Source of the DNA: an uncultured Acidobacteriota bacterium
Lineage (GTDB): Bacteria; Acidobacteriota; Thermoanaerobaculia; Multivoradales; UBA5704
DNA: 64,000 nt
NCBI GenBank assembly: GCA_963770895.1
Contig: CAVYRF010000002.1
Span: 3,456,001 to 3,520,000 of the forward strand
Reading direction: 5' to 3'
This document shows positions 24,309 through 40,182 of this stretch, piece by piece. The notes beneath the pieces were generated by a model. It was not told the origin of the DNA, ran no database searches, and worked only from the letters and a program-made list of their open reading frames with translations. Position 1 is the first letter of the stretch. Each line of letters starts with the position of its first letter. Made by a program: the position numbers and the translations under genes.

Positions 24309-25400
24309 ATGAGATCTCGCGCAATGTTCTACGCGCTCTCCCAGGCGGTCCGGGTCGGGGGGCAGGTCACGAGGTGGGCGCGGCGGCTTGCGCTCTTCGG
24401 CGTCGTGGCGGCGGTCGCCTTGCCCGCGGGGCTGGAAGCGCAGGCCTCGCGGCACTTGCAGCAGGCGGACATCTGGTTCCATCCCTTGCCGTCGGCGTCG
24501 GCGTGGCCCACCGGGGAGCCCGTCGGCGGGTCGACGGATTTTCGCGCGCTGTTCAAGGGCAACGCCCCATGGCCGCGGGCGATCGCGCGGGTCAAGGTGG
24601 TGGGGATGTACGCCGCCTGGATCGTTGCGGCCAGCGATCAGGAATTGAGACAAACTGTCAGTTTTCTCAACCAGCACCACATGGGGATCGAGATCGAAGC
24701 GCCGGCGCTGCAGGCGCCCCCCACCTGTGGCTCAGGCGTGGAAGGGTATGTGCCGTGGGGCCAGTCGCTCTACGATTTCACCCTTGCCTACCTGAATCGG
24801 TTGAAAGCGCTCGACGCCCAGGTGGCCTTCGTGAAGGTCGACGAACCGTTTTTCTTCGGCAGCATCTCGGACGACCCCCGCGCCTGCCGCCTGCCGGTCG
24901 AGGAGGTGGCCTTGGCGGTCGGGCAGTACGCGCGGCTGGTCAAGAGCGTCTATCCTCATGCCGACGTCGGCGACGTGGAACCGATCATCGAGGGCCCCTA
25001 CCCTGTCGATGTCGTGAGCGCGATGGCACAGTGGCACGACGCCTACCGGACGGTCACCGGGGCGCCGTTCCCGTTCTTCTTCGCGGACATCGATTTCAGC
25101 AACCCCGCGTGGCCGACGATCGTCAAGACCCTGGAGGACCAGACGCGGCAAAGCGGCATGCAATTCGGCATCATCTACATCGGCGACGAGCAGGACACCT
25201 CCGATGCGGAATGGGCGGACAAGGCCGTGGCGCGCTTTCGGATCTACCAGCAAGAGAGCGGCGGCCGGCCCGACCACGTGCTGTTCCAGTCCTGGGAGCC
25301 GCACCCGGCGCACTGCCTGCCGGAAACCGATCCAACCACCTTCACCGGCGTGATCGACGCCTACCTCCGCGAGATGACGCCCTACGGCAGCTGGCCCTAA
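24309..25400 (+). CDS. Secreted hypothetical protein (possibly a glycoside-hydrolase-like barrel)
   Basis: 363 aa with a signal peptide and the motifs VDEPFF, VGDVEP and LFQSW. Start uncertain. Confidence 0.65.
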   Translation: MRSRAMFYALSQAVRVGGQVTRWARRLALFGVVAAVALPAGLEAQASRHLQQADIWFHPLPSASAWPTGEPVGGSTDFRALFKGNAPWPRAIARVKVVGMYAAWIVAASDQELRQTVSFLNQHHMGIEIEAPALQAPPTCGSGVEGYVPWGQSLYDFTLAYLNRLKALDAQVAFVKVDEPFFFGSISDDPRACRLPVEEVALAVGQYARLVKSVYPHADVGDVEPIIEGPYPVDVVSAMAQWHDAYRTVTGAPFPFFFADIDFSNPAWPTIVKTLEDQTRQSGMQFGIIYIGDEQDTSDAEWADKAVARFRIYQQESGGRPDHVLFQSWEPHPAHCLPETDPTTFTGVIDAYLREMTPYGSWP

Positions 25401-25487
25401 CGGCTCGTTTCGGGCTCTGGCCAGCTGCTCTGAGCGGGACTGCTCCTGGATAAACGGCAAAGTGCGCCGGCCTGCGGCGCCGCCTGG

Positions 25488-25524
25488 CTTATGAACGCAG
25501 CCCCAGGGGTGTGTGCACCATTTC
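25488..25524. repeat. Quasi-palindromic putative recombination site S1
   Basis: CTTATGAACGCAG-CCC-CA-GGG-GTGTGTGCACCATTTC. Aligns without gaps to S2-S4 and marks the start of the low-GC block. Confidence 0.75.
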
Positions 25525-26031
25525 TTACTGACCCTTCGCGGGCGGCTTCCTCGCCCGGACTACCCCGAGAGTCGTAGAATCTGAAGACTCTTCCTTTTCA
25601 ACTTGCCTCGGAGACAGTCTATCCAAGACCAGATCCACTAGAATCCTGGCGGTCTTCTCTGAATCGGCAAATTGGCTTAAGTGACTTTTCACTTCAGCGA
25701 CCAACTCCTCTCTTGCGCCGCGCTCTGGCAAATTAATCGAGCTTCCGACAAACTCATGTAGCTCCTGTCGCAGCTGGTCCAACGACTTCTCTGCCTTGTC
25801 GCCAGTGCCGATGCGCTTTGAAATCAAACCGCTAGTGACGGCAACAAAGATCGGGATCAAAGCCTTGCAAACCAGTATATCCACGAGGATACTGCCATCT
25901 AGATTGAGCGCCTGGCCTACGCCTGATGCTCTGGCTGTAATGGTTGCTGTGATCACTTCGCCTGCTGCTTTAAAGCAGGTTGCAACTTCATGCCTAGTTA
26001 CGGTGGCGCGATTAGAACCTCCGGCATCCAT
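25525..26031 (-). CDS. Hypothetical protein (low GC, one hydrophobic segment)
   Basis: 168-aa ORF whose start overlaps the upstream gene stop and whose stop abuts site S1. Confidence 0.6.
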   Translation of the reverse strand: MDAGGSNRATVTRHEVATCFKAAGEVITATITARASGVGQALNLDGSILVDILVCKALIPIFVAVTSGLISKRIGTGDKAEKSLDQLRQELHEFVGSSINLPERGAREELVAEVKSHLSQFADSEKTARILVDLVLDRLSPRQVEKEESSDSTTLGVVRARKPPAKGQ

Positions 26032-27575
26032 CAGAACCTCCGCGTTTTGTAAAAGTCAGACCATACCTGTCTGGCGAAGCACTGTGGAATTTCGGATGAA
26101 TGCGGAATCGATTCGCAGCTTCCAGATCTAAGAGGGCAGGGATAAAACGCATACTGCGTAGCCACGGGGCAGCAGAATTCCGTTCCCGACCAAACGGACT
26201 CCGAGAGGCCAATGAAGATCAATCGCCCAAGATGGGTATCCATTACTGAATGGGGAGACGCCGGTATAGTGTAGGCCGTTCGTCCTTCCTTCGTCTTCTC
26301 TGCTGTAATGAAGAGCGGTGCCGCGAGTTCAACCCTTTCCTTAGTGCTGAACATCGGATGTAGGCCCAGATCCATCCCGATCGACAGAAAATGAGCTCGA
26401 TAAACGCGCAGCGGATCTTTTAGCAAGAGCTCCATGCCTTTGATTCGGGCCCGGTGAAAGATTTCAAAGAGGTCCCGCACGCCTGTTAACATGGCGAGCT
26501 TTAACAGCTCTTCAAAGAGCTGTATCCAACGCCTAGATACCTCGTCGTGACGAAGGAACGAAGTACCGCTGCTCGGTCCTGACGCAAGCCTGTTGCAGTA
26601 GTTGATATGATTTACAATCAACCCCATAAACTCAGTATGTAAATAAAGCTCGTTAAGGTTGAACTCATTACGATGCTCCATGATGCATGGCATCACCGAG
26701 CCTGCGAGCTTCAAGAAACGGACCGCTGGTACCACGTCTTGTAAGGCAGAGCCATTGTTGAACTCATCCCCCTCTGGCAAAGGGCAAGTATGGAGTGCAA
26801 GGTCAAGCAGGAAAAGAAGAAGGCCGAACTCCGCAGCCCGAGGACAGTGTGGATACAATTGGTGTTGTCTGTTGGCTGTATCGAAGCGAATGGCCTCGAC
26901 GTACTTTTTGAAGGTATGAATGACCCTTTGGCAAGAAGTCATTCGCTCAGGCCGGAAGTATGGGGCTAGATCATTCACAACAGATTTGCTGAAAGCGTCT
27001 TTATAATGGAGCATCAAGTGGGCGATGCGGCGTTCGGTCAAGATGGCAGCGTGGCATTCAAAGAGTTCTTGTCCGGTCAAGCCAAAGCTGATCTCCAATC
27101 TATCCGCGATCGACGGGTGAGCGCGACTTTCGGCTTCCAGCACCCTGTCGAGGGTCCGCGAAGAGTAGATAATCTCCTGGAGGAAATGCCCTTCTTGATG
27201 GCGACCGTGTATCCGATTAGCAAAAGAATTATCGACCATCTCAGGGCTACTGTCGCTACCGCGGTTAGATTCGGGCTTGAGTCCTTGGGAAGCGTGAACG
27301 GCTATCGCGTTTTCGTCGGCATTAAGCTGCACCCAGGCACAGATGCCGAGTGTGTGGTCCTGGATAAAGTGAGTGGACTCATGGAGGAGCGTTACGAGGC
27401 CGAGAAATGCATCATGAGTCTTGAATTCCGTGCCCTCTTTGAGGGTACCGTCCGGCTTGAAGAGGTCAAGAGGGTTGGACCTCTCAAATGCGGTATACCA
27501 CAGGCGGTCTCCAATCCTGTGATGGCCGAGTATTGGGTTGGTCATAGGAAACCTGTGAAGCATTGCCTCGGACAT
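26031..27575 (-). CDS. Hypothetical HEXXH metalloprotease-like protein (low GC)
   Basis: 514-aa ORF with LLHESTHFIQ, a downstream ELFECHA and a Cys-rich C-terminus. GC is clearly lower than the flanks. Confidence 0.7.
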   Translation of the reverse strand: MSEAMLHRFPMTNPILGHHRIGDRLWYTAFERSNPLDLFKPDGTLKEGTEFKTHDAFLGLVTLLHESTHFIQDHTLGICAWVQLNADENAIAVHASQGLKPESNRGSDSSPEMVDNSFANRIHGRHQEGHFLQEIIYSSRTLDRVLEAESRAHPSIADRLEISFGLTGQELFECHAAILTERRIAHLMLHYKDAFSKSVVNDLAPYFRPERMTSCQRVIHTFKKYVEAIRFDTANRQHQLYPHCPRAAEFGLLLFLLDLALHTCPLPEGDEFNNGSALQDVVPAVRFLKLAGSVMPCIMEHRNEFNLNELYLHTEFMGLIVNHINYCNRLASGPSSGTSFLRHDEVSRRWIQLFEELLKLAMLTGVRDLFEIFHRARIKGMELLLKDPLRVYRAHFLSIGMDLGLHPMFSTKERVELAAPLFITAEKTKEGRTAYTIPASPHSVMDTHLGRLIFIGLSESVWSGTEFCCPVATQYAFYPCPLRSGSCESIPHSSEIPQCFARQVWSDFYKTRRF

Positions 27576-28227
27576 TGAGCGATGTCCGACGAACGGATCT
27601 GTGCCAGGAGGTCAAAATCACACTATAGCGTCTCGGCCTTTCTTGGCTGAGAGAACCTTGGTGACGTGAGGTTCTCCTCCTCTCTTCACCGGCTTACACC
27701 AAATGATAACATAGTGCGGATTCCGGCGAAGGCGACCACCCATTCCGACGGAAGGCGACCACCCGTCGGAGCGAGGCGGTGAGCGGAGGCTCATGGTTGG
27801 TTGAGGTGGTCGGCTTGGGCTTCTCCTGTGGTCCTTTTTCAGTGTATATGACCTCGTCGCCGGGGTTGTGGAAGGTCGTGGTAACCGGCGAGGGCGGGTG
27901 GTGGAGGGCGGGTGTGGTGGGGGGCCGGGAGCCGGTTTCCAAGCGGCTGTGGGAACGGCGGACCGGGGGCCGCGGCGGGCGGGGGCAGCGGAGCGTAGCG
28001 ACGCGGGCGGCCCACGTTGGGTCCGCGGTTTCCATCAGCCGCGGCACCTTCCACAGCCCATGCGTGCGTTGGGGGGTGGTGGGGGTGGGTGGGGGACGGG
28101 CCGGGCGGTGGGGCGGCCGGGCGGCGGCCGGCCGCTGTCGAGGTCTCGCCGGACGCCATAGGCGAGGCGCTGGGGCTCGCGGGGGGGCGGGGGGCACCAG
28201 GCGCCGCCACGGCGCGCCGCGATCGCG

Positions 28228-28980
28228 TCACGACGGCCCCTGGGCCGGCGCCGGCGCCTTGTCCTTGCGCTTCGACTCGCCCTTAAGCGGCAGCTCGTAG
28301 GCGTTGTGCACCAGACGGTCGAGCACGGCGTCGGCCAGCGTGGCGTCGCCGATCGCATCGTGCCAGGCGGCGACCGGCAGCTGGCTCGTCACCACCGTCG
28401 AGCGCCTGCCGTAGCGATCTTCGAGGATCTCCAGCAGATCACGCCGCTGAGCGTCGGTGAACGGATGCAGACAGAGGTCGTCGAGCACGAGGACGTCGGC
28501 CCGGGCAAGGTTGGCCAGCAGCTTGGAGTACCGGCCGTCCGCTTTGCCGGTGGCAAGCTCGGACAGCAGCCGTGGCACACGGTGATACAGCGCGGTGAAG
28601 CCTTCCCTGCACGCTTTGTGCGCCAGCGCACAGGCCAGAAAGCTTTTCCCCGTGCCGGTTTTCCCCGTAATCAAAATGTTAAGGTGTTGGGTGATCCACT
28701 GGCATGAGCACAGTGCCAGGAACAGCGCCCGATCGAGACCGCGCGGCAGGCGCAGGTCCACGTCTTCGACCGCGGCGGCCTGGCGCAGCCGTGCCTTGGC
28801 GAGACGGTCCTTCAGTCGGCGGTTCTCGCGCTCCGTCATCTCGCGATCGACCAGCAGCCCCAGGCGCTCGGTGAAGCCAAGCTCGTCGATGCCGGTCATC
28901 TGCAGCTGCTCCTCGAGCCCCTTGGCCATGCCGGTCAGCCGCAGGGCCTGGAGCTTGTCGAGCGTCGGATGGGTCAGCAT
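28228..28980 (-). CDS. istB: IS21 helper ATPase IstB
   Basis: GKTGTGKS, LVLDD, LEILEDRY and ADAVLDRLVHNA. Confidence 0.95.
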   Translation of the reverse strand: MLTHPTLDKLQALRLTGMAKGLEEQLQMTGIDELGFTERLGLLVDREMTERENRRLKDRLAKARLRQAAAVEDVDLRLPRGLDRALFLALCSCQWITQHLNILITGKTGTGKSFLACALAHKACREGFTALYHRVPRLLSELATGKADGRYSKLLANLARADVLVLDDLCLHPFTDAQRRDLLEILEDRYGRRSTVVTSQLPVAAWHDAIGDATLADAVLDRLVHNAYELPLKGESKRKDKAPAPAQGPS

Positions 28981-30533
28981 GGCTTCTGCTCCCCGCCGTA
29001 GTACGAAGCGCCGCGCAGGTTCTCATGCACGAGGGGTCGCCGCGCCGACTCGGCGGCCAGATCCATCTGCCGATCCAGCCCTCCCTGCAGGATGGAGCGC
29101 ACGCTGCGGAACGACGCGCCTTCGATCTCCAGCGCCAGCTGGCACGCCGCTTCCAGCCGCTCGTTGCCATACCGCTGCCCGAGCCGCAAGATCCCCAAAC
29201 ACGAGCGGAAGCCATGCTGCGGGTGCACTCGCGTCGACATCACCTGCTCGATCAGGCCGGCGACCGATGGCCCCGTCGTCTGCGACCACTGCACCAGCCG
29301 CTCGGGCGTCCACTCCGCATACGCCCGATGCGGCCGCGGCATGTGCTCGTGCTGCGTCGTGTGGGCTCCCCGGCGAAAGCAGCGCACATGGCTCGCCACC
29401 CGCTTGCTCTTGGCGAAGAACTCCACCGTTCTCGCGCTCAGCCGCACGTCCAGCTGCTGGCTCACCAGCTGGTACGGCACGCTGTAATAGTGGCCGTCGA
29501 CTTCGACGTGGTAGTCCGCCACGACGCGCCCCTTTTTCCACTCGGCGTAGCTGAAGCCCGACGCCGGCAGCGCCCGCAGAGCCGGCCGCTCCATGCTCTC
29601 AAAGAGCGACCGGCGCGAGCCCTCAAGCTTGCGGAATTGACGCTCGTTCAAGCGTATCAAAAGCATTCCAATCGCCTCGTTGAGCTCAGCAAGAGAAAAG
29701 AACTTCCGGTGCCGCAATCGGGCCAGGATCCAGCGTTCGACGACCTGCACCCCCACCTCCACTTTGGCCTTGTCGCGGGGCCGCCGCACGCGCGCCGGCA
29801 TCACTGCCACGCCGTAGTGCAACGCCAAATCGTGATAGGTAGGGTTCAGCTCCGGCTCGTACCGGCACGGCCGGCTGACCGCCGACTTCAAGTTATCGGG
29901 AACCACCATTTCGGTTAGGCCGCCGGCGAACTCAAAAGCCCGCACGTGCGAGCCGATCCAGTCCGCCAATCCCTGACTCCACGTCGCCTCCGCGAAGGTG
30001 TAGTTGCTCGCCCCCCACACCGCCACGAAGATCTGCGCCGCGTGCACCTCTCCCGTGCCGGCGTCGACCACCGGCACCGTCGCGCCGCAGTAGTCGACGA
30101 ACAGCTTCTCGCCAGCCCGATGCACCTGGCGCATCGACAGGTCCACCCGCCCCCGCCACTGGCCGTACAGCTCGCAGTACCGGCTGTAGCCGTAGCCGTG
30201 AGGCTCCCTCTCCCGGTACTCCTCCCACAGCAGCGACAGGGTCACCCCTTTGCCCTTGAGCTCGCTGTGCACGGCCGCCCAGTCCACCGCTGGCCGTCGC
30301 GCCGCCGGCACCTGCTCGACCACCGGGTAGAGCCGACGCTCCAGCGCCTCCTCGCCCAGCTCCGCCGCCACGGACCAGTCCAGCCCGCTCCTGCGCGCAC
30401 GGGCCACGCACTCCACAACCGTCGTCTTGCCTATCCCGCAGCAGTCCGCCACCTGCCGCTGGCTCAGACCGCAGACCCACAGCAATCGCAACATCTCTCG
30501 AATCTTTCTCACGTTCACTCTCCGTGCCGGCAT
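28974..30533 (-). CDS. istA: IS21 transposase IstA
   Basis: GEKLFVDY, VPDNLKS, PRDKAKVE (DDE motif) and the C-terminal HENLRGASYY. Confidence 0.95.
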   Translation of the reverse strand: MPARRVNVRKIREMLRLLWVCGLSQRQVADCCGIGKTTVVECVARARRSGLDWSVAAELGEEALERRLYPVVEQVPAARRPAVDWAAVHSELKGKGVTLSLLWEEYREREPHGYGYSRYCELYGQWRGRVDLSMRQVHRAGEKLFVDYCGATVPVVDAGTGEVHAAQIFVAVWGASNYTFAEATWSQGLADWIGSHVRAFEFAGGLTEMVVPDNLKSAVSRPCRYEPELNPTYHDLALHYGVAVMPARVRRPRDKAKVEVGVQVVERWILARLRHRKFFSLAELNEAIGMLLIRLNERQFRKLEGSRRSLFESMERPALRALPASGFSYAEWKKGRVVADYHVEVDGHYYSVPYQLVSQQLDVRLSARTVEFFAKSKRVASHVRCFRRGAHTTQHEHMPRPHRAYAEWTPERLVQWSQTTGPSVAGLIEQVMSTRVHPQHGFRSCLGILRLGQRYGNERLEAACQLALEIEGASFRSVRSILQGGLDRQMDLAAESARRPLVHENLRGASYYGGEQKPC

Positions 30534-30989
30534 CTCGCTCCCTTCGTCGATGGAGACGAGCATGCCAGAGGTACGGAGCCGCCGCTTGTTGTCACCGCCC
30601 TTCTCGATCTCGATTCCGATCGAAGGCGACCACCCTTCCGGGGATGGCGACCACCCTTCCGGGCCAAGGGCTAAAAGTGGTCGCCTTCAGACTGGAATGG
30701 GGTGGTCGCCTTCCGTCGGAATCAGTGGTCGCCTTGCGACCGGAAACGGTGGTCGCCTTCGACCGGAATACGCATAACATAGCGCGGTAACGACACCGTG
30801 GGAGGGGTGCAGGCCGGAGCCCGTCCCACGGCCGGGCGCGCCGGTCGGAGCTCAGCGCCGCCGCCAGAAGCCTCGGTCCCTGGATACCTTTTCCGGTCCG
30901 GCGTTGGAGCGCGGCCTCTTCCTCGCGGAGGCACCTTCAGTCCGGGAACCCTCTTACCAGGAAGAAAACCCCGGAGCCGGAGCTATACG

Positions 30990-31229
30990 GTGTCATCTGC
31001 ACGCCGAAAATGGACCCAGTTGCAGGCTAAATTCCCCCCCTCGGAGGCAAGGGCGATGGAGCGGGAATGGTCCAAGCTCCCCGCGGCGCCTGAAGGCGCC
31101 GTGGAGCGGGAGTTGATCGGCGAACAGGTCTGGTCGGCGATGGAGGTCCTGCGGGGTAAGGCTTATCGAAGAAGGCGATTCGTCCGTCTGTACAAGAAGC
31201 CTTTGGCCTTTTTCCTCGACAGCGAGTGA
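30990..31229 (+). CDS. Small hypothetical protein
   Basis: 79-aa ORF from a GTG, convergent with the XRE gene. No recognisable motif. Confidence 0.3.
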   Translation: MSSARRKWTQLQAKFPPSEARAMEREWSKLPAAPEGAVERELIGEQVWSAMEVLRGKAYRRRRFVRLYKKPLAFFLDSE

Positions 31230-31242
31230 CGCCTGGCGAGGC

Positions 31243-31617
31243 TTACCCGCGCGAGGCAAGCCACCGCTCGAAAGCTCGCCGGATGCGCGGGCATGGGTGT
31301 TTAATCTCGTCGCGCTCCCAGGCAGAGACGGTCGATGGGTCGAGACCGAACCGGCGGGCCAGCGCTTCCGCAGAGAGTCCCGCGGCCTGCCGCGCGGCCC
31401 TCACGTGTCCGCCAAAGGTTTCTGGCTCCGGCCGGGGGTCGTAGCCGAGGAAGGCGAGGATGCCGGGCAGGAAGCGCAGCCCCGGCGTGCCCCGCCCCGC
31501 CTCCCAACTCGCGAGGCTCGGCTGCGAGCAGCCGATCTCGCGGGCCGCGTGTCGCTGGCGGAGGCCCCGGTCAAGGCGCGCCCGCCGGAGATGCTCGCCG
31601 AAGGTCGCCGGCGCCAC
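31243..31617 (-). CDS. XRE-family regulator with two HTH domains
   Basis: TFGEHLRRARLDRGLRQ...SWEAG and TFGGHVRAARQAAGLS...VSAWE. The frame stays open upstream through site S2. Confidence 0.8.
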   Translation of the reverse strand: MAPATFGEHLRRARLDRGLRQRHAAREIGCSQPSLASWEAGRGTPGLRFLPGILAFLGYDPRPEPETFGGHVRAARQAAGLSAEALARRFGLDPSTVSAWERDEIKHPCPRIRRAFERWLASRG

Positions 31618-31666
31618 CGGGTAACCCTGCGGATTCGACTTCCGTCCTCGTAAGCGGACACGAACA

Positions 31667-31703
31667 CTTATGCACGCAACCCAAGGGCTGCGTGCACCTT
31701 TTG
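31667..31703. repeat. Quasi-palindromic putative recombination site S2
   Basis: CTTATGCACGCAA-CCC-AA-GGG-CTGCGTGCACCTTTTG. The right arm is identical to S4 over 29 bp. Confidence 0.8.
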
Positions 31704-31915
31704 TGATCCGCTTGCGGGGCAGGATTCTTCGCCCTGGCTATCCTCAGAACCGTCGCACCCTGGGCGAGCACCTCAAGTAGCCGAAGTCCCAGGGGAGCCG
31801 AGGCGGAGGCGCCGGTGCACTTGGTAAGGAGCAGGGGCCGACGCAGTAATCTCGTCGCTCGGCCCGAGGTGTAGATGGGTTGCTATTCATGCGGTGAATG
31901 GATATCATTCGCGGC

Positions 31916-33151
31916 GTGAATGAACCATCCCGCACCCTGTCGCGATTCCTTGCGCCCCGCCTGGCCGTTCTCCTCAAGTCGTTTCCGGCAGTCGTCCTCA
32001 CCGGCGCCCGGCAGACCGGCAAGACAACCCTGGTGCAGCAACTGCCGAGCAAGCCGCAGCGAGCTTATCTCACCCTCGACGACCTGGATGTCCTGGAGCG
32101 CGCGCGGCTCGAACCGGCGGCGCTCGTTGCCAACGCCGAGGGGCCGCTGACGCTCGACGAGGTCCAGCGATCCCCGGACCTGCTATTGGCGGTCAAGCGG
32201 GCAATCGACCAGCGCCGCACGCCGGGCCGGTTCCTGCTCACTGGTTCTGCCAACCTGCTTCTGATGCGGCGAATCTCCGAATCGCTTGCGGGGCGGGCTG
32301 CCTATCTCACGCTCTGGCCGCTCACTCGTCGTGAGCAGCTTGGCTTGGGGACCACCGGTGCTTGGTCGCGCTTGCTGGCGGCCGCTGATCGCGACTGGCC
32401 TGCGGTGCTTTCCGCCGAGACTGCCCCGGAGGAGGACTGGCGCGCGCTGGCGCGACGCGGCGGCTATCCGACCCCCGCCCACGAGTTGGACGATGCCGAG
32501 GCGCGGTCCGCCTGGTTCGCCGGCTATGTCAGAACCTACCTCGAACGCGATCTGCTGGAGATCTCGGCGGTGGCGTCGCTGGTGGATGTTCGGCGACTGA
32601 TGCGGGCGATCTGCCTGCGGCTCGGGGGCCTGCTCAATCAGACGGAGGTGGCCCGCGATATCGGGATGTCCCAACCCACGGTGCATCGCCACCTCAACCT
32701 GCTCGAGACCACCTACCAACTGGTCCGCCTGCCTGCCTTCACTGTCAACCGCACGAAGCGCCTGCTCAAGACCCCCCGAGTCTTCTGGTGCGATACGGGT
32801 CTGGCGATGCACCTGGCAGGCGAAACGACACCGCAGGGCGCTCACCTCGAAAGCCTGGTGCTTCAGGATCTGCTGGCCTGGCGGGACTCATCACCGGTGG
32901 AGGCCGAGATCCTGTACTGGCGCACCGTGGCGGGCGACGAAGTGGACTTTGTCATCGAGCAGGATGGGATGCTGCTTCCCATCGAGGTGAAGACCGGGCG
33001 CCGCCCTTCCCTTGCGGATGTGCGCTCGCTCAAGTTGTTCCGGCAGGAGTACGCGGACCGTGCACGCCCCGGCCTGCTGCTGCACACCGGAAGCGAGATT
33101 GCCTGGCTGGCCGACGGAGTGCTGGCAGCGCCATGGTGGCGGGTCTTCTAG
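31916..33151 (+). CDS. AAA+ ATPase with a DUF4143 (PD-(D/E)xK-like) C-terminus
   Basis: GARQTGKT, LDEVQR, LLTGSA, GGYP and EVDFV...IEVK. Confidence 0.9.
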   Translation: MNEPSRTLSRFLAPRLAVLLKSFPAVVLTGARQTGKTTLVQQLPSKPQRAYLTLDDLDVLERARLEPAALVANAEGPLTLDEVQRSPDLLLAVKRAIDQRRTPGRFLLTGSANLLLMRRISESLAGRAAYLTLWPLTRREQLGLGTTGAWSRLLAAADRDWPAVLSAETAPEEDWRALARRGGYPTPAHELDDAEARSAWFAGYVRTYLERDLLEISAVASLVDVRRLMRAICLRLGGLLNQTEVARDIGMSQPTVHRHLNLLETTYQLVRLPAFTVNRTKRLLKTPRVFWCDTGLAMHLAGETTPQGAHLESLVLQDLLAWRDSSPVEAEILYWRTVAGDEVDFVIEQDGMLLPIEVKTGRRPSLADVRSLKLFRQEYADRARPGLLLHTGSEIAWLADGVLAAPWWRVF

Positions 33152-33342
33152 CCCAGCGGCCCGTGACGAGAATGCGGAATCCGACGATGGCGGTACCCGT
33201 TTCGCCCGCAAGGCGACCATCCTGGTCGGAGCGCAGCGACGGTGAAGCTCGGATTGGGTCAAGCTGCGATGATGGCCTTTCAACGACTCGCCTGATCGCT
33301 CATCGGAAAGCCAAGGCCGCGATCTTCGGCAAACGACCACCG

Positions 33343-34593
33343 ATGAGGCAGAAACGAAGCAGCGAGAAGGAAGCGGCAGCCCTCGATCAGCTGATCGCCG
33401 AAATCATCGTCGACGCTTACGGCGACGACGAGCAGTTGTGGGCTTTCCGCGAAGCGTTCGAGCAGAACGTCGACCTGCCGTGCGACGGGTTCGTGATCGG
33501 TGAGCCGGTGTCCGTCACAGCGTTCGACTACGACGGCAACCCGCGGCGCGGCCTGATCGCCACTTGTCGTCGTGACGACGGATCGAACCACGTGATGGCG
33601 GCGGCCGATGTCGCCTTCCCCTCGCAGTCCATCGGCGGGCGGCACATTGCAGCCTACCGGAGGTGGCTCGGCCTCGAGGCACTGCCTCCTGAGGTCGAAC
33701 CCGAATCTGGCCGCAGGCGCGGGCACAAGTCCGCGGCGAGCCACCTCAACCCGACGGGGCCAGTCGAGCTCGTCGCTCTCTCGGTCAAGGAGAGGGCCGC
33801 GCGTTGCCGCCTTCTCGGAAGCGAGCGCGTCCTCACTCTGCGTGCAAGCCGGCTGTGGGAAGTCGTCCCAGGTGAGGTCCTGACCGTCCGTCCGCGCAGG
33901 CAATGGAGCTACGCCGGCCATCCGTATCTTTCGGGTGAAGTCGAGTCGTCGCGGCTCGACGTGGCGGCGCTGGGGCTCGTTCCGCTCAGGATGGAGAACC
34001 GTGGAATCTGGAACCCGGCGGACGAGTACTGGGGAGAGGCGGACGAGCCGGTCGAGGAGTGGGCCAAGTCGATCATTGCCGGTGGCCGCCGACCGGCGTT
34101 CGAAATGGAACAAATCCTGCCGTCGTCAGATCCAGATGATCCCGACTCCGACCCAATCTGCGTGTCCAACGACCTCAAGGAGGCCGGTGCAATCAGCGAA
34201 GCGCGAGCTCTGTTGATGAAGCTCTGCGAAGCAGATCTACGCTGCTTGGACGCGCACGCCCATCTCGGCAATCTTGTGTTCGACGACAGTCCCAAGCAGG
34301 CGATCCGGCACTACGAAGCCGGCGTTCGCATCGGGGAACTCTCGCTTGGCCCCACGTTCGACGGCCTACTGCCATGGGGCCTCATGGACAACCGTCCGTT
34401 CATCCGCTGCATGCATGGATTCGGCCTGTGCCTCTGGCGACTCGGTCGATTCGACGAGGCAGGGAGCGTCTTCGACCGGATGCTTTGGTCGAACCCTTCG
34501 GACAACCAAGGCGTGCGATTCCTGATCGACGAAGTGCGTCGTCATACGCGCTGGGAAGATCGTGCGTCGGAGCGGCAGCGGCCTTCCTTATAG
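33343..34593 (+). CDS. CcbP-like N-terminal domain plus TPR-like protein
   Basis: EIIVDAYGDDEQ...IAAYRRW, with C-terminal LDAHAHLG...NRPFIR...NPSDNQGVR. Confidence 0.7.
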   Translation: MRQKRSSEKEAAALDQLIAEIIVDAYGDDEQLWAFREAFEQNVDLPCDGFVIGEPVSVTAFDYDGNPRRGLIATCRRDDGSNHVMAAADVAFPSQSIGGRHIAAYRRWLGLEALPPEVEPESGRRRGHKSAASHLNPTGPVELVALSVKERAARCRLLGSERVLTLRASRLWEVVPGEVLTVRPRRQWSYAGHPYLSGEVESSRLDVAALGLVPLRMENRGIWNPADEYWGEADEPVEEWAKSIIAGGRRPAFEMEQILPSSDPDDPDSDPICVSNDLKEAGAISEARALLMKLCEADLRCLDAHAHLGNLVFDDSPKQAIRHYEAGVRIGELSLGPTFDGLLPWGLMDNRPFIRCMHGFGLCLWRLGRFDEAGSVFDRMLWSNPSDNQGVRFLIDEVRRHTRWEDRASERQRPSL

Positions 34594-34675
34594 GAGGGGC
34601 CGGCGTCGACTCTCTCACGGTCCGAGGCACTTCTCGCAGCTCGGGTGCGGGTAACGTGCCCTCAAAATGAGACGG

Positions 34676-34715
34676 CAAATTGCCAACAAACCCCCAGGGG
34701 TTCATAGATAAGTTG
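34676..34715. repeat. Quasi-palindromic putative recombination site S3
   Basis: CAAATTGCCAACAAAC-CCC-CA-GGG-GTTCATAGATAAGTTG. The left arm extension CCTCAAAATGAGACGGCAAA matches S4. Confidence 0.75.
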
Positions 34716-34936
34716 CCATGTCATCCTTCGAGGACGAAAAGTAAGCCGGGGGTTATCCCGCGGACCCAAAAGACTCCGGGCGAGCACCTGCGGTGGATCT
34801 CCGTTGCGTCTCCCGCCCGAAAGCGACGATCTATTCCGACGAGACAAGCACCGATTCCATGGGAGAGACTCAACCCGAGTCGTTTCGCGGATCATGGAGC
34901 GATTCGATCACAGGCGGAGCAGCAGCACGAAGTAGG

Positions 34937-35317
34937 TTATTCCGGCGGCTGCCGTGAGACCGATGACAACCTTCTCCTGCATGGGGAACCACACAAATTG
35001 GCGATTCTTTGTTCGGTTGTAAGCTGGTAATGACCAGCCAGGCCAAGCGCTTGACCAACAAAGAGAAGAACGCCGATACCAAAAGCTGCACGTGCCATTG
35101 GGGTCGTGGCGAGACCGAGGACAGGTAGCAGGACGACACCCGCCACAAACGTTAGCATTCCCACTATATTTACATAATCAGATGGAACGAGCCATGGGAT
35201 ACTGCCCTCGTCCCCTACTGCGGCTTCCCGTTCCAGCCGCCATTTGAAGAATGTTACCTGAAAACCGAGAATCAACCCTGTGGGCGTCCATAGGTCACGA
35301 AGAACTGGGTCTATCAT
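34937..35317 (-). CDS. Small membrane protein (low GC)
   Basis: 126 aa with three hydrophobic segments. The 3' end may be frameshifted. Confidence 0.55.
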   Translation of the reverse strand: MIDPVLRDLWTPTGLILGFQVTFFKWRLEREAAVGDEGSIPWLVPSDYVNIVGMLTFVAGVVLLPVLGLATTPMARAAFGIGVLLFVGQALGLAGHYQLTTEQRIANLCGSPCRRRLSSVSRQPPE

Positions 35318-35350
35318 CCACTATCCTCAATTCTGCTGCTCTGTGAAAGA

Positions 35351-35773
35351 TCACGTTTCTCCTTCGGCAGCGCGCAAAGCGGCCAGGACTGCCCTGCATG
35401 CGTCGATCAGATCACCGAGCAGCGTTTCGTTGATGTCGAGGATTCCCTCGTATTCCGCGAGATTCCGTTTCTCGTGGGCCTTAGCCAGTACTCGCCACAC
35501 TGAGGGTGGGATGCCGAGGGTATGTGGGAGCGTTTGAAAAACGAGATAGCGGCTCTCAGAGCGATAGCCTAAACGGCGCAACGCAGCAAGTGCGAGGACG
35601 TGTGCAGCGTTATAAGCGAGATCAAAGCGGCTCTCGATCGAAAGCTCCGGCTTCGGGGCGTCAGCCAAGCGGGCCTCTCCCGACTGTCGAAGGCCCGCGA
35701 TCTCACCGGCCGAGGGCGCTTCGTGCTTGAGCTTGCCGGCCCGTACCAGATTCTCCAGCTCAGGTGAGGTCAT
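35351..35773 (-). CDS. HEPN-like protein
   Basis: RFDLAYNAAH...HEKRNLAEYEG. Overlaps the upstream nucleotidyltransferase. Confidence 0.75.
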   Translation of the reverse strand: MTSPELENLVRAGKLKHEAPSAGEIAGLRQSGEARLADAPKPELSIESRFDLAYNAAHVLALAALRRLGYRSESRYLVFQTLPHTLGIPPSVWRVLAKAHEKRNLAEYEGILDINETLLGDLIDACRAVLAALRAAEGET

Positions 35774-36362
35774 CGTCTGACCCGATCACGAAGAGCTTTC
35801 GCTGTGAAGCGATCCGGGCCGCAAACGAGTCGTCTTGCGCGACCTTGGCTCGCCAGTCGGCAAGGCTCACTATCGTCGGATTGACTGGACGAGCCAGGAG
35901 GGCTTCAGCCTGCTGCAATGCCTCGAACAGATCCGGGTAATGAAGCAAGTCGGAGATCACCATGAGGTCGATGTCGCTTCGGGCGTGGTCGTTTCCCTTG
36001 GCAACGGAGCCAAAGACGAATGCGGCGCGGATGCTTTCTGCCATCGCGCTCAGAGCATCCCGAAGTGGGTCAACGATGCCCACAGTCTTTGCGACTAGAC
36101 CTTGCAGCTCAGAGAATACCGGCGATCCTCGCCGGGCCTGGTAGTGCTTCTGATTCCCGACGCGAGTCACCTCGACCAACCCCGCCTCCTCCAAACGTGA
36201 GAGCTGACGGTGGACTGCGCCAACGCCGCCATTCACCAACCGGATTAACTCGGAGCTTTGGAAGCGGCGGTCGGGCTGTCCGAATAGGAATCTTAGAACA
36301 CGCTGCTGAATGGGCGTGAAGAGCGCATCGGCCAGGCCGCTCTCGGAGGTCTCTCTTCCCAT
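35760..36362 (-). CDS. HTH-nucleotidyltransferase (MNT) protein
   Basis: LADALF...wHTH, then AFVFGSVAKG...SDIDLMVI. Confidence 0.85.
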   Translation of the reverse strand: MGRETSESGLADALFTPIQQRVLRFLFGQPDRRFQSSELIRLVNGGVGAVHRQLSRLEEAGLVEVTRVGNQKHYQARRGSPVFSELQGLVAKTVGIVDPLRDALSAMAESIRAAFVFGSVAKGNDHARSDIDLMVISDLLHYPDLFEALQQAEALLARPVNPTIVSLADWRAKVAQDDSFAARIASQRKLFVIGSDDDLT

Positions 36363-36503
36363 TTCGGGTAGGATTATACCCAATCGGAAGCTGGTGGGCG
36401 ATGGCTGAGTGCGCCCAAGGCGCCCCTTCAGGAGGCGGTTACCGAGGGTCCGGGGGTGCCGCTGGGCTCCTGGACGGGGAAGGGCGTCCTCAGAATGAGA
36501 CGG

Positions 36504-36543
36504 CAAAAGGGCAACACACCCCCAGGGCTGCGTGCACCTTTTG
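36504..36543. repeat. Quasi-palindromic putative recombination site S4
   Basis: CAAAAGGGCAACACAC-CCC-CA-GGG-CTGCGTGCACCTTTTG. Confidence 0.8.
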
Positions 36544-36624
36544 TGATCCGCTGCGGGGCCGGCTTCCACGCCCTATTTGCCACTCCATCTCTCCGCACCC
36601 ATTTGCCGACCACCTGAAGAGCGT

Positions 36625-36897
36625 CCGGCCTCCGTCCAGGAAGCTCGCGGAGGCGGGCCAGAACTCGTGATACTCCGTCGCCGTCGCTCGGCGCAGAAGC
36701 TCGACCGCAACCATCGGAGAGACCGGGCTCGGATAGCGAGACTGGCTGAGCACGCGGATGAAGCCGTTCTGCGTCACGGCACACGAGGCCCAGCCCAGGC
36801 GGATCTCGGTCGAGATCCACTCGCGGGCGTGGCGGTGATCGACGTGATCGCGATCGAGCAAGGCGACCAGCGCGTTGACATCGAGCAGAGCGCGCAC
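36625..36897 (-). pseudogene. 3'-truncated PIN (VapC) toxin
   Basis: MRALLDVNALVALLD...TQNGFIRVLSQ...HEFWP. PIN-like sequence stops near aa 90, and the ORF then reads through S4. Confidence 0.7.
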
Positions 36898-37040
36898 TAC
36901 CCGAGATCCTCCTCGCGGAGACGGTCGACCATCTCGTTCGAGATGACGGTGCCTCGGGGAGGGAGAGGTTGGAAGCCGTAGAAGGCTTCAGATTCAGCGA
37001 AGTCGCCGGCTTGGCCCTGCGGGTGACACCTGAGCCCCGC
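36897..37040 (-). pseudogene. 5'-truncated VapB-like antitoxin
   Basis: Reads ...EAFYGFQPLPPRGTVISNEMVDRLREEDLG*, with an upstream in-frame stop and no start codon. Confidence 0.55.
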
Positions 37041-37055
37041 TGCTCAACTGTTCGG

Positions 37056-40025
37056 TCAGGATTTCGCCACATTCTTGGAAGCGTCTGCCGGGGGGCGCTC
37101 CGGGCCGGCGGCTGCCAGGCTTTCGGCTTTGCGGGCGATGAGCAGGTGGCCGGCGGCGCGGGCGTCGCGGGCCAGGGCTTGCAGGTAGGCTTTGGCGGGC
37201 TGGGGATGGCGGCGGAAGTCGATTTCCCCCTGGACCAGGCGGGCTTCCAGGACCAGGGCCAGGGCGCGGGTTTTTTCGGCTTTGGCCTGGGCGGCCTGGG
37301 CGAGGGCTTGGGCTTGGTCCAGGCGGCCGGCGGCGGCGGCGGCGCGGGCCTGGGCCAGCATGACGAAGAGGTTGGGGAGGGTCTGGTGGTTGGCGCGGAG
37401 GGCGTCGGCGGCTCGCGCGCAGTCGGCGGCGGCGGCGGCGTCCTGGTGGAGCTTGATCTCGGCCAGGGCGGCGAGGGCCAGGGCGAGGGCGCTGTTGCCG
37501 GACTCGTGGGTGAGCGCGAAGGCCTGGGCGGCCTGGCGAGCCATGGTCAGGGCTTCGGCGGGACGGCCCTGCTCGATGCGCAGCTGCGCCAGGTCGAGGC
37601 GGGACTGCGCCACGGTGTCCTGGTCGCCGAGGAGCTGGCGGCTGGCGAGGGAGGAGCTGAGGAAGCGGTCGGCTTCGCCCAGGCGGTCCTGGGCCATGAA
37701 GACCATGCCCAGGTCGTCGTCGTGCCGTGAGGTGCCGCTCGGGTCGTGCAGGGCCTGGCTGAGAGCGAGCGCCTCCTGGTAGCCGCGCAGGGCCTGGTCG
37801 AGCTTGCCGGCGGCAAACTGCGTGTCGGCGATCGAGCCGATGCAGAAGGCGGCGTACTCGCGGTCGCCGATCTGGCGGCTGATCGCCAGCGCTTCCTGCT
37901 GCATGGCCAGAGCCTTGTCGATGTCGCCTTGGTCGGCGAGGGCGTTACCGGTGGCGGAGAGCCCCCAGACGATGCCGCGGCGGTCGTTGATCTCGCGGCT
38001 CAGGGCGAGCGCCTGGCCGGCGCTGTGCAGGCACTCTTCGACGTTGCCTTGCATCCAGTCGGTGTTGGCGATGTCGCTCCAGGCGTGGGCGGCGCCCTTG
38101 CGGTTGCCGGTGCTCTGGAAGGTGGCGAGCGCCTGGCGGTAATCGGCGATGGCGCCGTCGTAGTCGCCGCGGCTCCCCTTGGCGTTGGCGATGCCGACGA
38201 GGGCTTCGGCTTCGCGGTTGGTGTCGCCCAGGCCGTGGAAGATGCGCACGGCTTCCCCCCAGGCGGCGTCGGCGTCGGCGACCTGGCCGAGATTGCCCGC
38301 CGCCGAGGCGGCGGCCAGCAGCGCCTCGCCCAGCAGCAGCGGCAGCCCGCGCGCCCGCCCCACCAGGATGGCGCGCTGGGCGGCGCCCAGCTCGTCGCGC
38401 CAATCGGAGAGCGCGGCGCTGGCGGCGGCTTCCGCCAAGTCGATGCGCGGGTCGCGGCTGGCCGCGGGCGACCGCTGGCGCAGGGAGGCGATGACGGTGA
38501 GCGCTTCCTCGGCCCGGCCGCCCGCGACCTCGGTGCGGACCAGGTTGAGGCCGTATTCCAGGTTGTCGGGAAAGAAGGCGAGGAGGGCGCGGTCGGTGTT
38601 GGCGGCAGCGGCCCAATCCTTTTGCGCTTCGGCCAGCGCCGCGGCGATCTCCAGTTGCTGCTCGCGCGTCAGCTGGTGCGACAGCGCCAGGGCCTGCCTG
38701 GCCTCGTCCACCGCCAGCTGGTCGTAGCCCAGGGTGGCGAGCGCCTGGCTCAAGGCGGCGTGGGCGAGCGGGAAGCCCGGCTCGATGGCGGCCGCCTGGG
38801 CCAGCCGGGCGCGGGCGCCCAGGGCGTCGTACTGGCGGAGCTTTTCCAGCCCCTCGGCGTAGAGGCGTGTGGCCCCTTCGCTGGCGGGCAGCGCGGCGGC
38901 GGCGGCGGCGATGCTCTGCACGGCGGCGCCTTCCAGTCCCAGCCTGGCGCGCAGCAGGTGGGCGGTTTCGTCGACCAGCAGGAAGAGGCGGTGGCTGGCG
39001 CCGGTGCGCGACACGGTGCAGAGCGTCTCTCCCGACGCGGCGCTCTGCAGCACGACGTCGAGCCGCATCTGCTCGCCGTCGGGCCCCGGCGTGGTGGCGT
39101 AGAACCCCTTGACCACGAAATCCGTCGCCAGCTGCCAGCGCGCCGCGGCCAGGGCGTCCCGCGCCAGGGCCCCCGGCTCCGGCGGCAGGGTGCGGGCGAA
39201 CCGCGCCGCTTCGGCGCCCGGCACCAGCCTGAGCTTTTCGCCGGCGGCGAGGTCGGCGCTCATCATCTCGGCCAGTGCCGTGGCCATCCACTCCGACTCG
39301 CTGTGGTGGGTGAGGTTTTCGAAGCCCAGCACCGCGACGGCGGGCCGCGACGGCAGAGGCGCCGCCGCCAGCGGCGGGGCCGCCCCGGCGCGGGCCGCCC
39401 GACCCTGGCCGTGGCCGTGGGCGCCGCCGACGGCCCACCAGACGGCGGCCGCCACGGCCAGGCAGCCGGCAGCGGCGGCCGCCGCTCTGGCACGCCATGG
39501 GCGCCGGGGACGCTGCGGCGCCGCGTCCCCGCGCCGCGGCGCCGGTTCCGCCGGTTCAGCCACTGCCGGTCCGGCTGGCTCCGCCGCCAGTTCAGCCGCC
39601 ACCGATCCAGCCGCTGCCGGTCCAGCCGCCACCGATCCCGCTGCCTCCACCGCCGGTGCAGCCGCTGCCGGGTCGGCCGGCGCCACCACCTCTGCCTGGC
39701 TGAGGTCGGTGCGCTGGACCGGCGCGACGAAGCGGTAGCCGATGCGCGTGACCGTTTCGACGAAGGTGGTGTCGGCGTCCACCTTTGCCAGGGCGCGGCG
39801 GATGAGCCACACGTTCTTGGCGAGGTTGCTCTCCTCGACGACCGTGTCCGGCCAGACCCTGGCGAACAGCTCCTCCTTGGTGACCAGGTGTCCGGCGCGT
39901 TCGACCAGGCAGAGCAGCACGTCGAAGGACCGCGGCTTGAGCGCGATCGCGGTGCCGCCGGCCAGCAGCCGGCGCTCGCGCGCTTCCAGCAGGAAGCTGC
40001 CGAAGCGGTAGCTTTCGGGATGCAC
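37056..40025 (-). CDS. Winged-HTH (OmpR/CadC-type) + TM + TolB-N-like + TPR regulator
   Basis: YRFGSF...LVTKEELFARVWPDTVVEESNL...RIGYRF, then a TM segment, VAVLGFEN and many TPRs. Start approximate. Confidence 0.88.
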   Translation of the reverse strand: MHPESYRFGSFLLEARERRLLAGGTAIALKPRSFDVLLCLVERAGHLVTKEELFARVWPDTVVEESNLAKNVWLIRRALAKVDADTTFVETVTRIGYRFVAPVQRTDLSQAEVVAPADPAAAAPAVEAAGSVAAGPAAAGSVAAELAAEPAGPAVAEPAEPAPRRGDAAPQRPRRPWRARAAAAAAGCLAVAAAVWWAVGGAHGHGQGRAARAGAAPPLAAAPLPSRPAVAVLGFENLTHHSESEWMATALAEMMSADLAAGEKLRLVPGAEAARFARTLPPEPGALARDALAAARWQLATDFVVKGFYATTPGPDGEQMRLDVVLQSAASGETLCTVSRTGASHRLFLLVDETAHLLRARLGLEGAAVQSIAAAAAALPASEGATRLYAEGLEKLRQYDALGARARLAQAAAIEPGFPLAHAALSQALATLGYDQLAVDEARQALALSHQLTREQQLEIAAALAEAQKDWAAAANTDRALLAFFPDNLEYGLNLVRTEVAGGRAEEALTVIASLRQRSPAASRDPRIDLAEAAASAALSDWRDELGAAQRAILVGRARGLPLLLGEALLAAASAAGNLGQVADADAAWGEAVRIFHGLGDTNREAEALVGIANAKGSRGDYDGAIADYRQALATFQSTGNRKGAAHAWSDIANTDWMQGNVEECLHSAGQALALSREINDRRGIVWGLSATGNALADQGDIDKALAMQQEALAISRQIGDREYAAFCIGSIADTQFAAGKLDQALRGYQEALALSQALHDPSGTSRHDDDLGMVFMAQDRLGEADRFLSSSLASRQLLGDQDTVAQSRLDLAQLRIEQGRPAEALTMARQAAQAFALTHESGNSALALALAALAEIKLHQDAAAAADCARAADALRANHQTLPNLFVMLAQARAAAAAGRLDQAQALAQAAQAKAEKTRALALVLEARLVQGEIDFRRHPQPAKAYLQALARDARAAGHLLIARKAESLAAAGPERPPADASKNVAKS

Positions 40026-40182
40026 CTCGGTCACATGCGGCGCCTCGGGGGCTGGTGAAAGTAAGAGGAAGCGGCGAAGAACGTTCGCCCAGGACAAGTC
40101 TAGCCTTCGCGTTCGATGCTCTGCAAGGCGAGCGAGATCTGCCCGCCATTTGGGCGAGGCGGTCACGCCTCAGGAGGAGAAC

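Follow-up and report, generated by a model that had tools for sequence, protein, structure and literature searches.

According to the excerpted accounts considered here, elements of the staphylococcal cassette chromosome (SCC) type are cassettes without a recombinase, flanked by attachment (att) sites and moved in trans by large serine recombinases (LSRs); defence-rich tandem cassettes are among them (PMC11470126). Cis-mobilizable elements (CIMEs) are described as decayed elements that keep their att sites and into which new elements accrete (PMC5704250). The att sites of enterococcal cassette chromosome (ECC) elements are given as about 50 bp long (PMC6222049). Among the listings and abstracts of the literature, there was no account of such arrays, or of the LSR family presented below, in Acidobacteriota. 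Here, we describe an array of four quasi-palindromic sites, S1 to S4, in a 64,000-nt stretch of DNA (the window) from an uncultured Acidobacteriota soil bacterium. The 8.16-Mb genome (G000, 70.6% GC) is in three contigs, and the window is C2:3456001-3520000, where C1 and C2 denote contigs. Window coordinates count from the first letter of the stretch, and W1 to W4 are the segments opened by S1 to S4. We favour the view, with a probability of about 0.68, that the four sites are att sites of one LSR family and that the array is made of accreted, partly decayed pieces of integrative elements. The sites are read as LSR att sites because LSR genes carry a half-site in their 3' ends and because, in other lineages, a comM gene is cut at the dyad of such a site.

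The four palindromic sites described by the earlier note are all present (Table 1), and they align without gaps, as it had reported, around CCC-CA-GGG. In each, a 6-nt centre is framed by an 11-nt arm and its 11-nt inverted counterpart, the consensus being RTGCACGCANC CCC|AGG GNTGCGTGCAY. The core of S4 reads GGCAACACACC CCC|AGG GCTGCGTGCAC. That of S2 reads ATGCACGCAAC CCA|AGG GCTGCGTGCAC, with AA rather than CA at the centre. In serine integrases, the central dinucleotide sets the polarity of a site and must match between partner sites. S2 is therefore probably inactive. The right-arm pattern is found three times in the window against 0.31 expected, a number reached in 1 of 100 shuffles, and the left-arm 14-mer is found twice against 0.15 expected.

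Comparison of the arms confirmed most of the sharing pattern proposed earlier. The right arms of S2 and S4 are identical over 29 nt, the left arms of S3 and S4 show 87.5% identity over 40 nt, and the right arm of S3 groups with the inverted form of the S2 left arm. The left arm thought to be common to S1 and S2 is reduced to a likeness of some 13-16 nt, and the left side of S1 lies outside the arm family. With half-site types named a, a', b, c and c' by similarity clustering, S1 has a non-family left arm and an a' right arm, S2 combines c and a, S3 b and c', and S4 b and a. Thus, seven of the eight window arms are family arms pointing into their own segments. S1 sits between two convergent gene ends, where the GC content falls from 0.648 to 0.592 and then 0.509, the drop to which the earlier note had drawn attention. 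Because its left arm is not a family arm, S1 probably represents the outer junction of the array. A second lower-GC patch (0.59-0.66), where no family site is present, is seen at 51000-54000 of the window.

Pattern, BLAST and profile searches identified 16 related sites at six loci of the genome. A half-site profile gave 32 matches (E up to 50), 28 of which fall on these 16 sites, and R1, a sequence-only model of the 60-nt site, recovered the same 16 plus one weak further match. The sites form a small family, not a genome-wide repeat. Half-site types are not tied to the left or the right of a site, and most of the possible combinations are observed. Left and right halves assort INDEPENDENTLY, changing at the dyad. 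In 26 pairs of sites, one side is at least 80% identical over the 40 nt next to the dyad, and for 25 of these pairs the identity on the opposite side does not exceed 57%, with mismatches beginning within 5 nt of the dyad. Only S2 and the site near 5,357.8 kb of C2 (C2_5357) are alike on both sides. For example, C2_5379 and C2_4642 are 100% identical on the left with a first mismatch at +5, C2_4620 and C2_5357 behave likewise, and S2 and S4 are identical from +1 to +25 on the right and divergent from -1 leftwards. The switch cannot be mapped more finely than within 5 nt on either side, the CCC/GGG flanks being conserved. Crossovers at the centre would be expected to leave such a pattern, which favours the site-specific recombination at the central dinucleotide that the earlier note had suggested. 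The idea also withstands the refutation test that the note had set for it.

The centre is C|A in 22 of 23 aligned sites oriented by their centre, S2 (A|A) being the exception, and C|A or T|G in 33 of 34 sites of a second set (which shares five with the 23 and includes one of this genome). Hence the sites have the layout of att sites, that is inverted half-sites around a common 2-bp centre, and they align without gaps up to and including the CTTTTG-type flanks. As S1, S3 and S4 are direct CA repeats, one would predict that W3 (1,828 bp from dyad to dyad) can be excised in circular form.

The genome contains eight matches to the Resolvase domain. None is in the window, in keeping with the earlier note, which had postulated a trans-acting recombinase outside the window and had advised a search for a co-occurring enzyme. 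Two intact LSRs with Resolvase and Recombinase domains were found elsewhere, one of 552 aa (C1:121838-123496) and one of 521 aa (C2:5378285-5379850), with 69% identity between the two proteins. Each gene has a TraG/TrwB-like coupling-protein gene directly upstream. The C1 protein has an RVST motif. Among proteins of solved structure, it is best matched by serine integrases and resolvases, including a 500-aa integrase and the enzymes of TP901-1 and SPbeta. In both genes, a site is located within the last 50-130 nt of the coding sequence, and its left half-site encodes the C-terminal tail of the protein. The left core arm of S4, GGCAACACACC, is identical to the arm within the C1 gene. A remnant at C2:4642361-4642666, 98% identical to the 3' end of the C2 gene, also ends in a site, so that the two intact genes and the remnant give three LSR-site links out of three in this genome. 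No LSR remnant was detected in the window by tblastn with both proteins.

The same physical link is observed in other genomes. R1 and an LSR query were run on 41 genomes, this one and 40 relatives (G-numbers denote genomes and L-numbers fetched loci); ten of them, nine besides this genome, form the same-genus set. The LSR query matched in 15 of the 41 genomes and in six of the ten of the same genus. In the six relatives with both LSR and R1 matches, the 3' end of the LSR coincides with a site in eight of nine cases, the ninth being a fragment at a contig start. Nine more LSR matches, in eight genomes of other genera, come without an R1 match. Eight loci with LSR relatives were fetched, one of which, a 27% match in a Ruminococcus record, was excluded; all seven full-length homologues (L024-L030, 50-69% identity) have a site at the 3' end of the gene. 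Ten LSR genes have a site that could be oriented with respect to the gene, and these are split evenly between CA and TG, with five each.

Three of these loci reveal a target. In a Caulobacter segnis record (L027), a Sphingobacterium metagenome-assembled genome (MAG; L028) and a Flaviaesturariibacter MAG (L029), the half-site opposite the LSR belongs to a Mg_chelatase/ComM-like gene, cut at position 158-159 of the 207 profile positions, with a reading frame that stops at ..MNP on the dyad. As comM is cut at the dyad opposite the LSR, the site is, on this gene organization, the junction between an LSR element and its target in those genomes. In the present genome, comM is intact and unoccupied (C2:5026474-5028006); thus, the LSR family has evidently moved to other targets there. 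Yet another type of half-site (..TCGCCRAR GTGNCCGCAGGGNC|) is repeatedly seen opposite family arms, at the L071 dyads 417 and 4401, the L024 dyad 7507 and C2:5381081-5381108, and may be a chromosomal target-type arm.

The 11-6-11 geometry is also that of dif, and modules carrying toxin-antitoxin genes in both orientations recall the pdif modules known from Acinetobacter plasmids. We therefore considered Xer-type tyrosine-recombinase sites delimiting dif-module-like units. This assignment is very unlikely, given that the site is embedded in an LSR gene in every case examined, that it forms an element/comM junction in three other lineages and that no tyrosine recombinase is found beside any of the six loci. 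About 335 kb downstream of the window, at C2:3826687-3830414, there are some four adjacent tyrosine-recombinase-like genes. Other serine recombinases are also encoded in the genome. LSRs of a second family, 543-590 aa long and with a Zn_ribbon_recom domain, are encoded at C2:5362351-5363982 (L086:5351-6982) and C1:93191, in the same islands as the first. The genes at C1:1496435, C2:764394 and C2:3311949 are 759-aa frames with identical scores, in repeated DNA beside IS21-like sequence, and could be part of a composite mobile element that has no relation to the present sites.

The elements that carry the LSRs are called integrative rather than integrative conjugative elements (ICEs) because the VirB4 and relaxase matches lie elsewhere: there is a single genome match to VirB4 (PF03135) and four to the relaxase family PF03432, none of them in the LSR-bearing elements, other families not having been searched. 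Ten open reading frames (ORFs) were searched of the 17 called in the 20 kb to the left of the coupling-protein gene, and gave no type IV secretion system (T4SS) family.

Outward from the dyad, 98 arms were compared, 52 of which fall in one similarity cluster and 17 in a second (b) cluster. The half-site is about 25 nt long and consists of the 11-nt core arm and CCC, preceded by CTTTTG-type bases, on either side of CA. In the common plan, the core arm (about 1-14) is followed by CTTTTGTGATCC or a variant at 15-26, a conserved CCTnnGAGGnCGG block at about 30-45, GGCTACCCCGAGA at about 55-70, and finally TGGGCGAGCACCTCAAG. The last of these codes for ..GEHLK, with which a double-HTH gene of the XRE family begins; this gene is read into the segment. 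In most arms, this start is some 70-85 nt from the dyad. Intact copies of the XRE gene are found at the left arm of S2, at many arms in other genomes and, encoding a 154-aa DicA/RstR-like protein, at the inner left end of the C1 element. The LSR-coding arms share just their first 30-40 nt with the XRE arms. The shortest arm covers 17 model positions and the longest 124. Position 110 or beyond is reached by 31 of the 76 anchored arms, and the end points of the others are spread over positions 17-110 without favouring any one of them. A discrete arm boundary is thus ruled out by the scatter, which looks like deletion decay and not like the designed edge of a module. Hairpins supported by covariation were not retained, since the alignment shows the conserved motif CCTnnGAGGnCGG and no clearly covarying stems (no fold or pair count made). 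A shift in spacing between half-site classes of the attP/attB kind was judged by eye and is not robust.

This anatomy raises two further explanations. First, the palindromes might be only XRE operators or promoters that were duplicated together with their genes and play no part in recombination. Most arms do lead to an XRE start, and the c arm of S2 forms the leader of the intact XRE gene, which begins 53 nt downstream of S2. Nevertheless, the left and right halves assort independently and switch at the dyad, sites occur in LSR 3' ends and comM junctions with no XRE gene on that side, and S1 is placed between two convergent gene ends. The operator-only reading is largely refuted by the variation at the junctions and we regard it as most improbable; an operator role on top of an att role is possible. 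Second, the arms might be terminal inverted repeats of a non-autonomous transposon, similar to a miniature inverted-repeat transposable element or to Tn3 and served by a DDE transposase, the sites being abutting ends. The arms are indeed inverted, inward-facing and some 50-100 nt long, and the ends of the Tn3 family begin with GGGG, as do these arms. However, the genome has no Tn3-family transposase (DDE_Tnp_Tn3), abutting arms are not separated by a target duplication and enclose exactly CA between CCC and GGG in nearly all sites, and one arm is the coding end of an LSR. In addition, IS21, the sole transposase of the window, has different repeats of its own. We consider transposon ends a highly improbable origin of the arms.

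Table 1. Positions of the sites, arms and genes of the array in the window, and loci of the site family in the genome.
Feature	Position	Strand	Remarks
S1 core	25491-25518	no strand	central CA 25504-25505
S1 right arm (a')	25505-25579	+	fits the common arm profile for 75 nt, then breaks off
W1 cargo ORFs	25525-26031 (168 aa), 26031-27575 (514 aa)	-	no Pfam/NCBIfam family; GC 0.51-0.59
IS21-family insertion in W1	27715-30774	-	IstB 28228-28980, IstA 28974-30563
Double-HTH XRE gene, intact	31243-31617	-	reads away from S2; HTH_31, HTH_3 twice
S2 core	31670-31697	no strand	central AA 31683-31684
S2 right arm (a)	31684-31795	+	112 nt; ends in XRE-start remnant ..TLGEHLK, then stop
AAA_14/DUF4143 ATPase gene	31898-33151	+	in W2
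W2 ORF, no family assigned	33268-34593	+	sub-threshold TPR and CcbP matches (E 0.05, 0.013)
S3 left arm (b)	34649-34695	+	
S3 core	34682-34709	no strand	central CA 34695-34696
S3 right arm (c')	34696-34796	+	XRE-start remnant ..PGEHLR
W3 cargo ORFs	34937-35317 (126 aa), 35351-35773 (140 aa)	-	no family found
S4 left arm (b)	36410-36523	-	weak arm-profile match over 114 nt
S4 core	36510-36537	no strand	central CA 36523-36524
S4 right arm (a)	36524-36629	+	106 nt; abuts PIN fragment
PIN toxin/antitoxin fragment	36626-37023	-	89% identical to C1:123591-123988; both genes truncated
Site locus	C1 near 68 and 72 kb		all CA on + strand
Site locus	C1 near 123 and 125 kb		all CA on + strand
Site locus	C1 near 1,999.6 and 2,002.6 kb		
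Site locus	window on C2, S1-S4		S1, S3, S4 CA on + strand
Site locus	C2 near 4,620.6 and 4,642.6 kb		both TG
Site locus	C2 near 5,348.6, 5,357.8, 5,379.8 and 5,381.1 kb		three TG, one CA

The contents of the segments are listed in Table 1, with family labels taken from Pfam and NCBIfam profile searches of the window ORFs. W1-W4 carry no recombinase apart from IS21, and they are multi-gene (2 to 4 or more) with regulator genes of their own. W1 also holds a 143-aa ORF besides IS21 and the XRE gene. The IS21 copy has a 99.9% identical counterpart at C2:1639678-1642736. This element, also seen at C1:1493837-1500253, has several short GGTGGTCGCCTTC-type repeats at both ends, and many solo copies of such end-repeats are scattered through the genome. 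The module at 31259-31865 is present three times in the genome with 90-94% identity. The ATPase gene is part of a block of about 1.4 kb (31864-33267) that has a second copy, 99.6% identical, at C2:5355350-5356752. There, the block has the opposite orientation with respect to the XRE-site module close by. The window copy has a solo IS21-like terminal repeat (33173-33263) at its end. After the PIN fragment, no closing site is found before the gene of a 1,036-aa TPR regulator (37056-40166).

Some gene labels given earlier were recovered by these searches and some were not. IS21 IstA/IstB, the double-HTH XRE protein, the AAA_14/DUF4143 ATPase and a truncated PIN gene could all be assigned. Of the "HEXXH pair", one HEXXH motif exists, in the 514-aa ORF, and the 168-aa ORF has none. 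"CcbP-TPR" corresponds to the sub-threshold matches of the W2 ORF, and for the "MNT-HEPN" label in W3 no family was found at E values up to 1 (Pfam) or 0.01 (NCBIfam). An Rfam scan of the window gave just a chance mir-584 match on the IS21 repeats, and the window has no tRNA genes, which rules out a structured RNA or tRNA target there.

The scan of relatives that the earlier note had proposed shows how the family is distributed. R1 matches are present in all ten same-genus genomes, 3-20 in each (both strands counted), once each in G012 and G030, and in none of the other 29. In the fetched stretches of the same-genus genomes, the sites form arrays with spacings of 0.7-5.2 kb. The arms beside S1, S3 and S4 are 77-91% identical to arms in other genomes of the genus, where the cargo differs. 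The right arm of S1 is 80-88% conserved in eight of the nine others, with no homologue there of the cargo behind it, and the W1 cargo has no homologue in any of the nine. The interior of W3 (35364-36380) has homologues of 75-76% identity in three same-genus genomes; in G003, the only one of the three compared with the R1 list, no listed site is within 500 kb of the homologue.

S1 coincides with a break in synteny. In G001 and G003, the orthologues of the left-flank gene have a different neighbour, and the copy in this genome of the G003 neighbour (C2:3528389-3529822) is 47 kb away and inverted. The breakpoint at S1 cannot be mapped to the dyad because homology ends at the end of the left gene, about 100 nt before S1. 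The window flanks are not adjacent in G001 or G003, and the locus was accordingly discarded as a source of an empty attB in these relatives. In G007 (C528:9438-9488; L079 dyad 5464), a site is located about 150 nt from a homologue of the window DUF4386 gene (23356-24102). This gene, to the left of S1, may itself be cassette cargo elsewhere.

Assembled Logan contigs of four of 20 public runs (X1, X3, X4 and X20) were aligned to positions 24800-37400 of the window. Outside IS21, the only joint is a 770-nt skip (33679-34450) inside the W2 ORF, seen in X3 and X20, which come from different studies, with 7 other letters between the joined parts. It is a deletion variant within this ORF and not at a site. 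In X3, loose contig ends occur at 31661 and 34682. The contig ending at 31661 looks like a paralogue, since its letters match the LSR 3' end beside the C2:5379798 site. No contig covers 25642-27325 in any of the four runs, or 34904-36166 in X20; such holes prove nothing.

From these data, the following sequence of events may be proposed. Integrative elements of the genus would carry LSRs that use these att sites, with the central CA as the presumed 2-bp crossover that sets the polarity of a site. The segments between S1 and S4 would be element pieces stacked by successive LSR recombination into existing att sites, and the C1 and C2 enzymes could act in trans on the window sites. An element of one polarity class entering a site of the opposite polarity would have to insert inverted, which would yield head-to-head junctions of two XRE arms such as S2. 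Opposite polarities within one locus, as for C2_5357 among TG sites, would support inversion, and this may explain the inverted ATPase block. Decay would have come later, with the IS21 insertion, deletions that truncated the arms and the PIN gene, and a C-to-A change that probably inactivated S2. The window copy is partly fossil.

Several points weigh against accretion by LSRs. A cognate LSR is found beside the site at other loci but not within the window. Four same-genus genomes have sites with no match to the LSR query; their assemblies are fragmented and 84-89% complete. The contigs of the four runs contain no joint from one S site to another, no circle and no empty site, and contigs drop rare variants. 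Phage-type LSRs normally tell attP from attB, whereas the half-sites here are alike, which leaves directionality and partner choice unexplained. Most segments have inward XRE-type arms at both ends, an arrangement for which simple head-to-tail accretion needs extra deletions or inversions. Past the first 25 nt or so, the arms might be conserved as promoters or operators for XRE and not for recombination. Finally, the "ICE" or conjugative label for the LSR elements is unproven, only a coupling-protein-like gene being present.

With accretion of LSR elements as the preferred reading, the closest resemblance is to SCC and SCCmec (CcrAB/CcrC) and ECC, which, in the excerpts at hand, are likewise tandem recombinase-less segments bounded by att sites of an LSR encoded elsewhere. 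Here, the segments are W1-W4 and the distant recombinases those at C1:121838 and C2:5378285. SCC is anchored at the 3' end of rlmH, whereas the present family occupies at least six loci, none of those examined being in a recognised conserved target gene; with comM intact and the flanks not syntenic in G001 and G003, no single anchor was found. Other differences are the arms of up to about 100 nt with an XRE start, the half-sites in both orientations and the unrelated lineage; for the present segments, excision is a prediction. CIME and ICE accretion of the ICESt1/ICESt3 type is similar in that, as far as the excerpts describe it, decayed elements keep att sites and form tandem composites. Those cases involve tyrosine integrases and direct repeats at a gene end, unlike the LSR, the quasi-palindromic sites with a 2-bp polarity core and the common inverted junctions seen here. 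Within the families searched, a T4SS and relaxase of their own were not found with the LSRs, each of which has just the TraG/TrwB-like coupling gene.

The LSRs of phages (Bxb1, phiC31, TP901-1, SPbeta SprA) have the same domains and are the best matches among solved structures. Their att sites have inverted half-sites of about 20-25 bp and a non-palindromic, matching central dinucleotide. In contrast, the present sites show no clear attP/attB difference, a half-site codes for part of the recombinase itself and there are many sites per genome. The hix/gix sites invoked by the earlier note share inverted arms around a 2-bp core and serine-recombinase chemistry. Small serine invertases are about 190 aa long. 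Here, the linked enzymes are 521-552 aa long and are LSRs with both a Resolvase and a Recombinase domain. The half-sites exceed those of hix/gix in length, there is no evident enhancer or invertible-promoter logic, and no small invertase is beside the sites. The analogy does not hold.

Integrons were the other model put forward, the array having been presented as a candidate new integron-like system. They too have arrays of short cassettes split by imperfect palindromes, commonly with toxin-antitoxin cargo. However, no IntI was found above the cut-off (TIGR02249, best match 77.6 bits against 265), and the 17 matches listed are all more than 300 kb away from the window. The sites have no RYYYAAC/GTTRRRY boxes and no R''-L''...L'-R' layout, the palindrome being continuous through the centre, as judged by eye and not with an attC model. 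The segments are multi-gene and have their own regulators, several of them are visibly decayed, and the linked enzyme is a serine and not a tyrosine recombinase. On this comparison, the term overstates the case, and SCC-like tandem cassettes and CIME accretion are the closest analogues.

A dedicated cassette platform, that is a serine-recombinase counterpart of the integron, was nevertheless considered. In this scenario, element-borne LSRs would act in trans to capture, excise and invert non-autonomous cassettes with standardised ends and so build toxin-antitoxin and defence arrays throughout the genus. Sites 0.7-5 kb apart in arrays of many same-genus genomes, segments that mostly have inward arms of the same family at both ends, arms better conserved than cargo and sites outnumbering LSR genes in each genome would all fit. 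So would the cargo: 81 candidate ORFs were called in 25 inter-site segments, and among the 25 most frequent of 50 Pfam families the commonest are PIN (4), HTH_31 (3), CHAT, NTP_transf_2 and DUF433 (2 each), with single matches including HepT, PemK/MazF, UPF0175, TIR_2, NUDIX and the AAA-type NTPases AAA_35 and AAA_14/DUF4143. Conversely, the scattered arm ends show no sharp boundary, the segments have several genes and their own regulators, the window copy is decayed (IS21 insertion, truncated PIN, AA core in S2), the W3-interior homologues have no listed site nearby in G003, the sole genome checked, and the public contigs contain neither circles nor empty sites. We judge such a platform unlikely, although the two points that accretion explains poorly, XRE-type arms at both ends of most segments and the choice of partners among similar half-sites, give it some scope. 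A related proposal, of dozens of segments across the genus with interchangeable arms that combine an LSR half-site and an XRE promoter, in which orientation would depend on the CA/TG code and expression would be coupled, through the XRE arms, to the state of recombination, is rather doubtful. If the platform existed, it would be functionally analogous to integrons but would rely on a different enzyme.

The findings account for a synteny break and a low-GC island in this genome. If the window copy were only a fossil, the locus would be a case of ordinary island decay. The arrays are LSR att-site arrays of the SCC/CIME type in a new lineage, unanchored to one target, with XRE-bearing arms and two polarity classes. 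If active, they would show that toxin-antitoxin and defence cassettes without a recombinase are stacked in the SCC-like manner not just in staphylococci but also in a soil lineage of Acidobacteriota. They would also provide a natural set of LSR substrates, with many arms, one central dinucleotide, a simple polarity code and S2 as a built-in negative control. The finding links a comM-targeting LSR family, known here from the Caulobacter and Bacteroidota records, to a radiation of att sites freed from comM.

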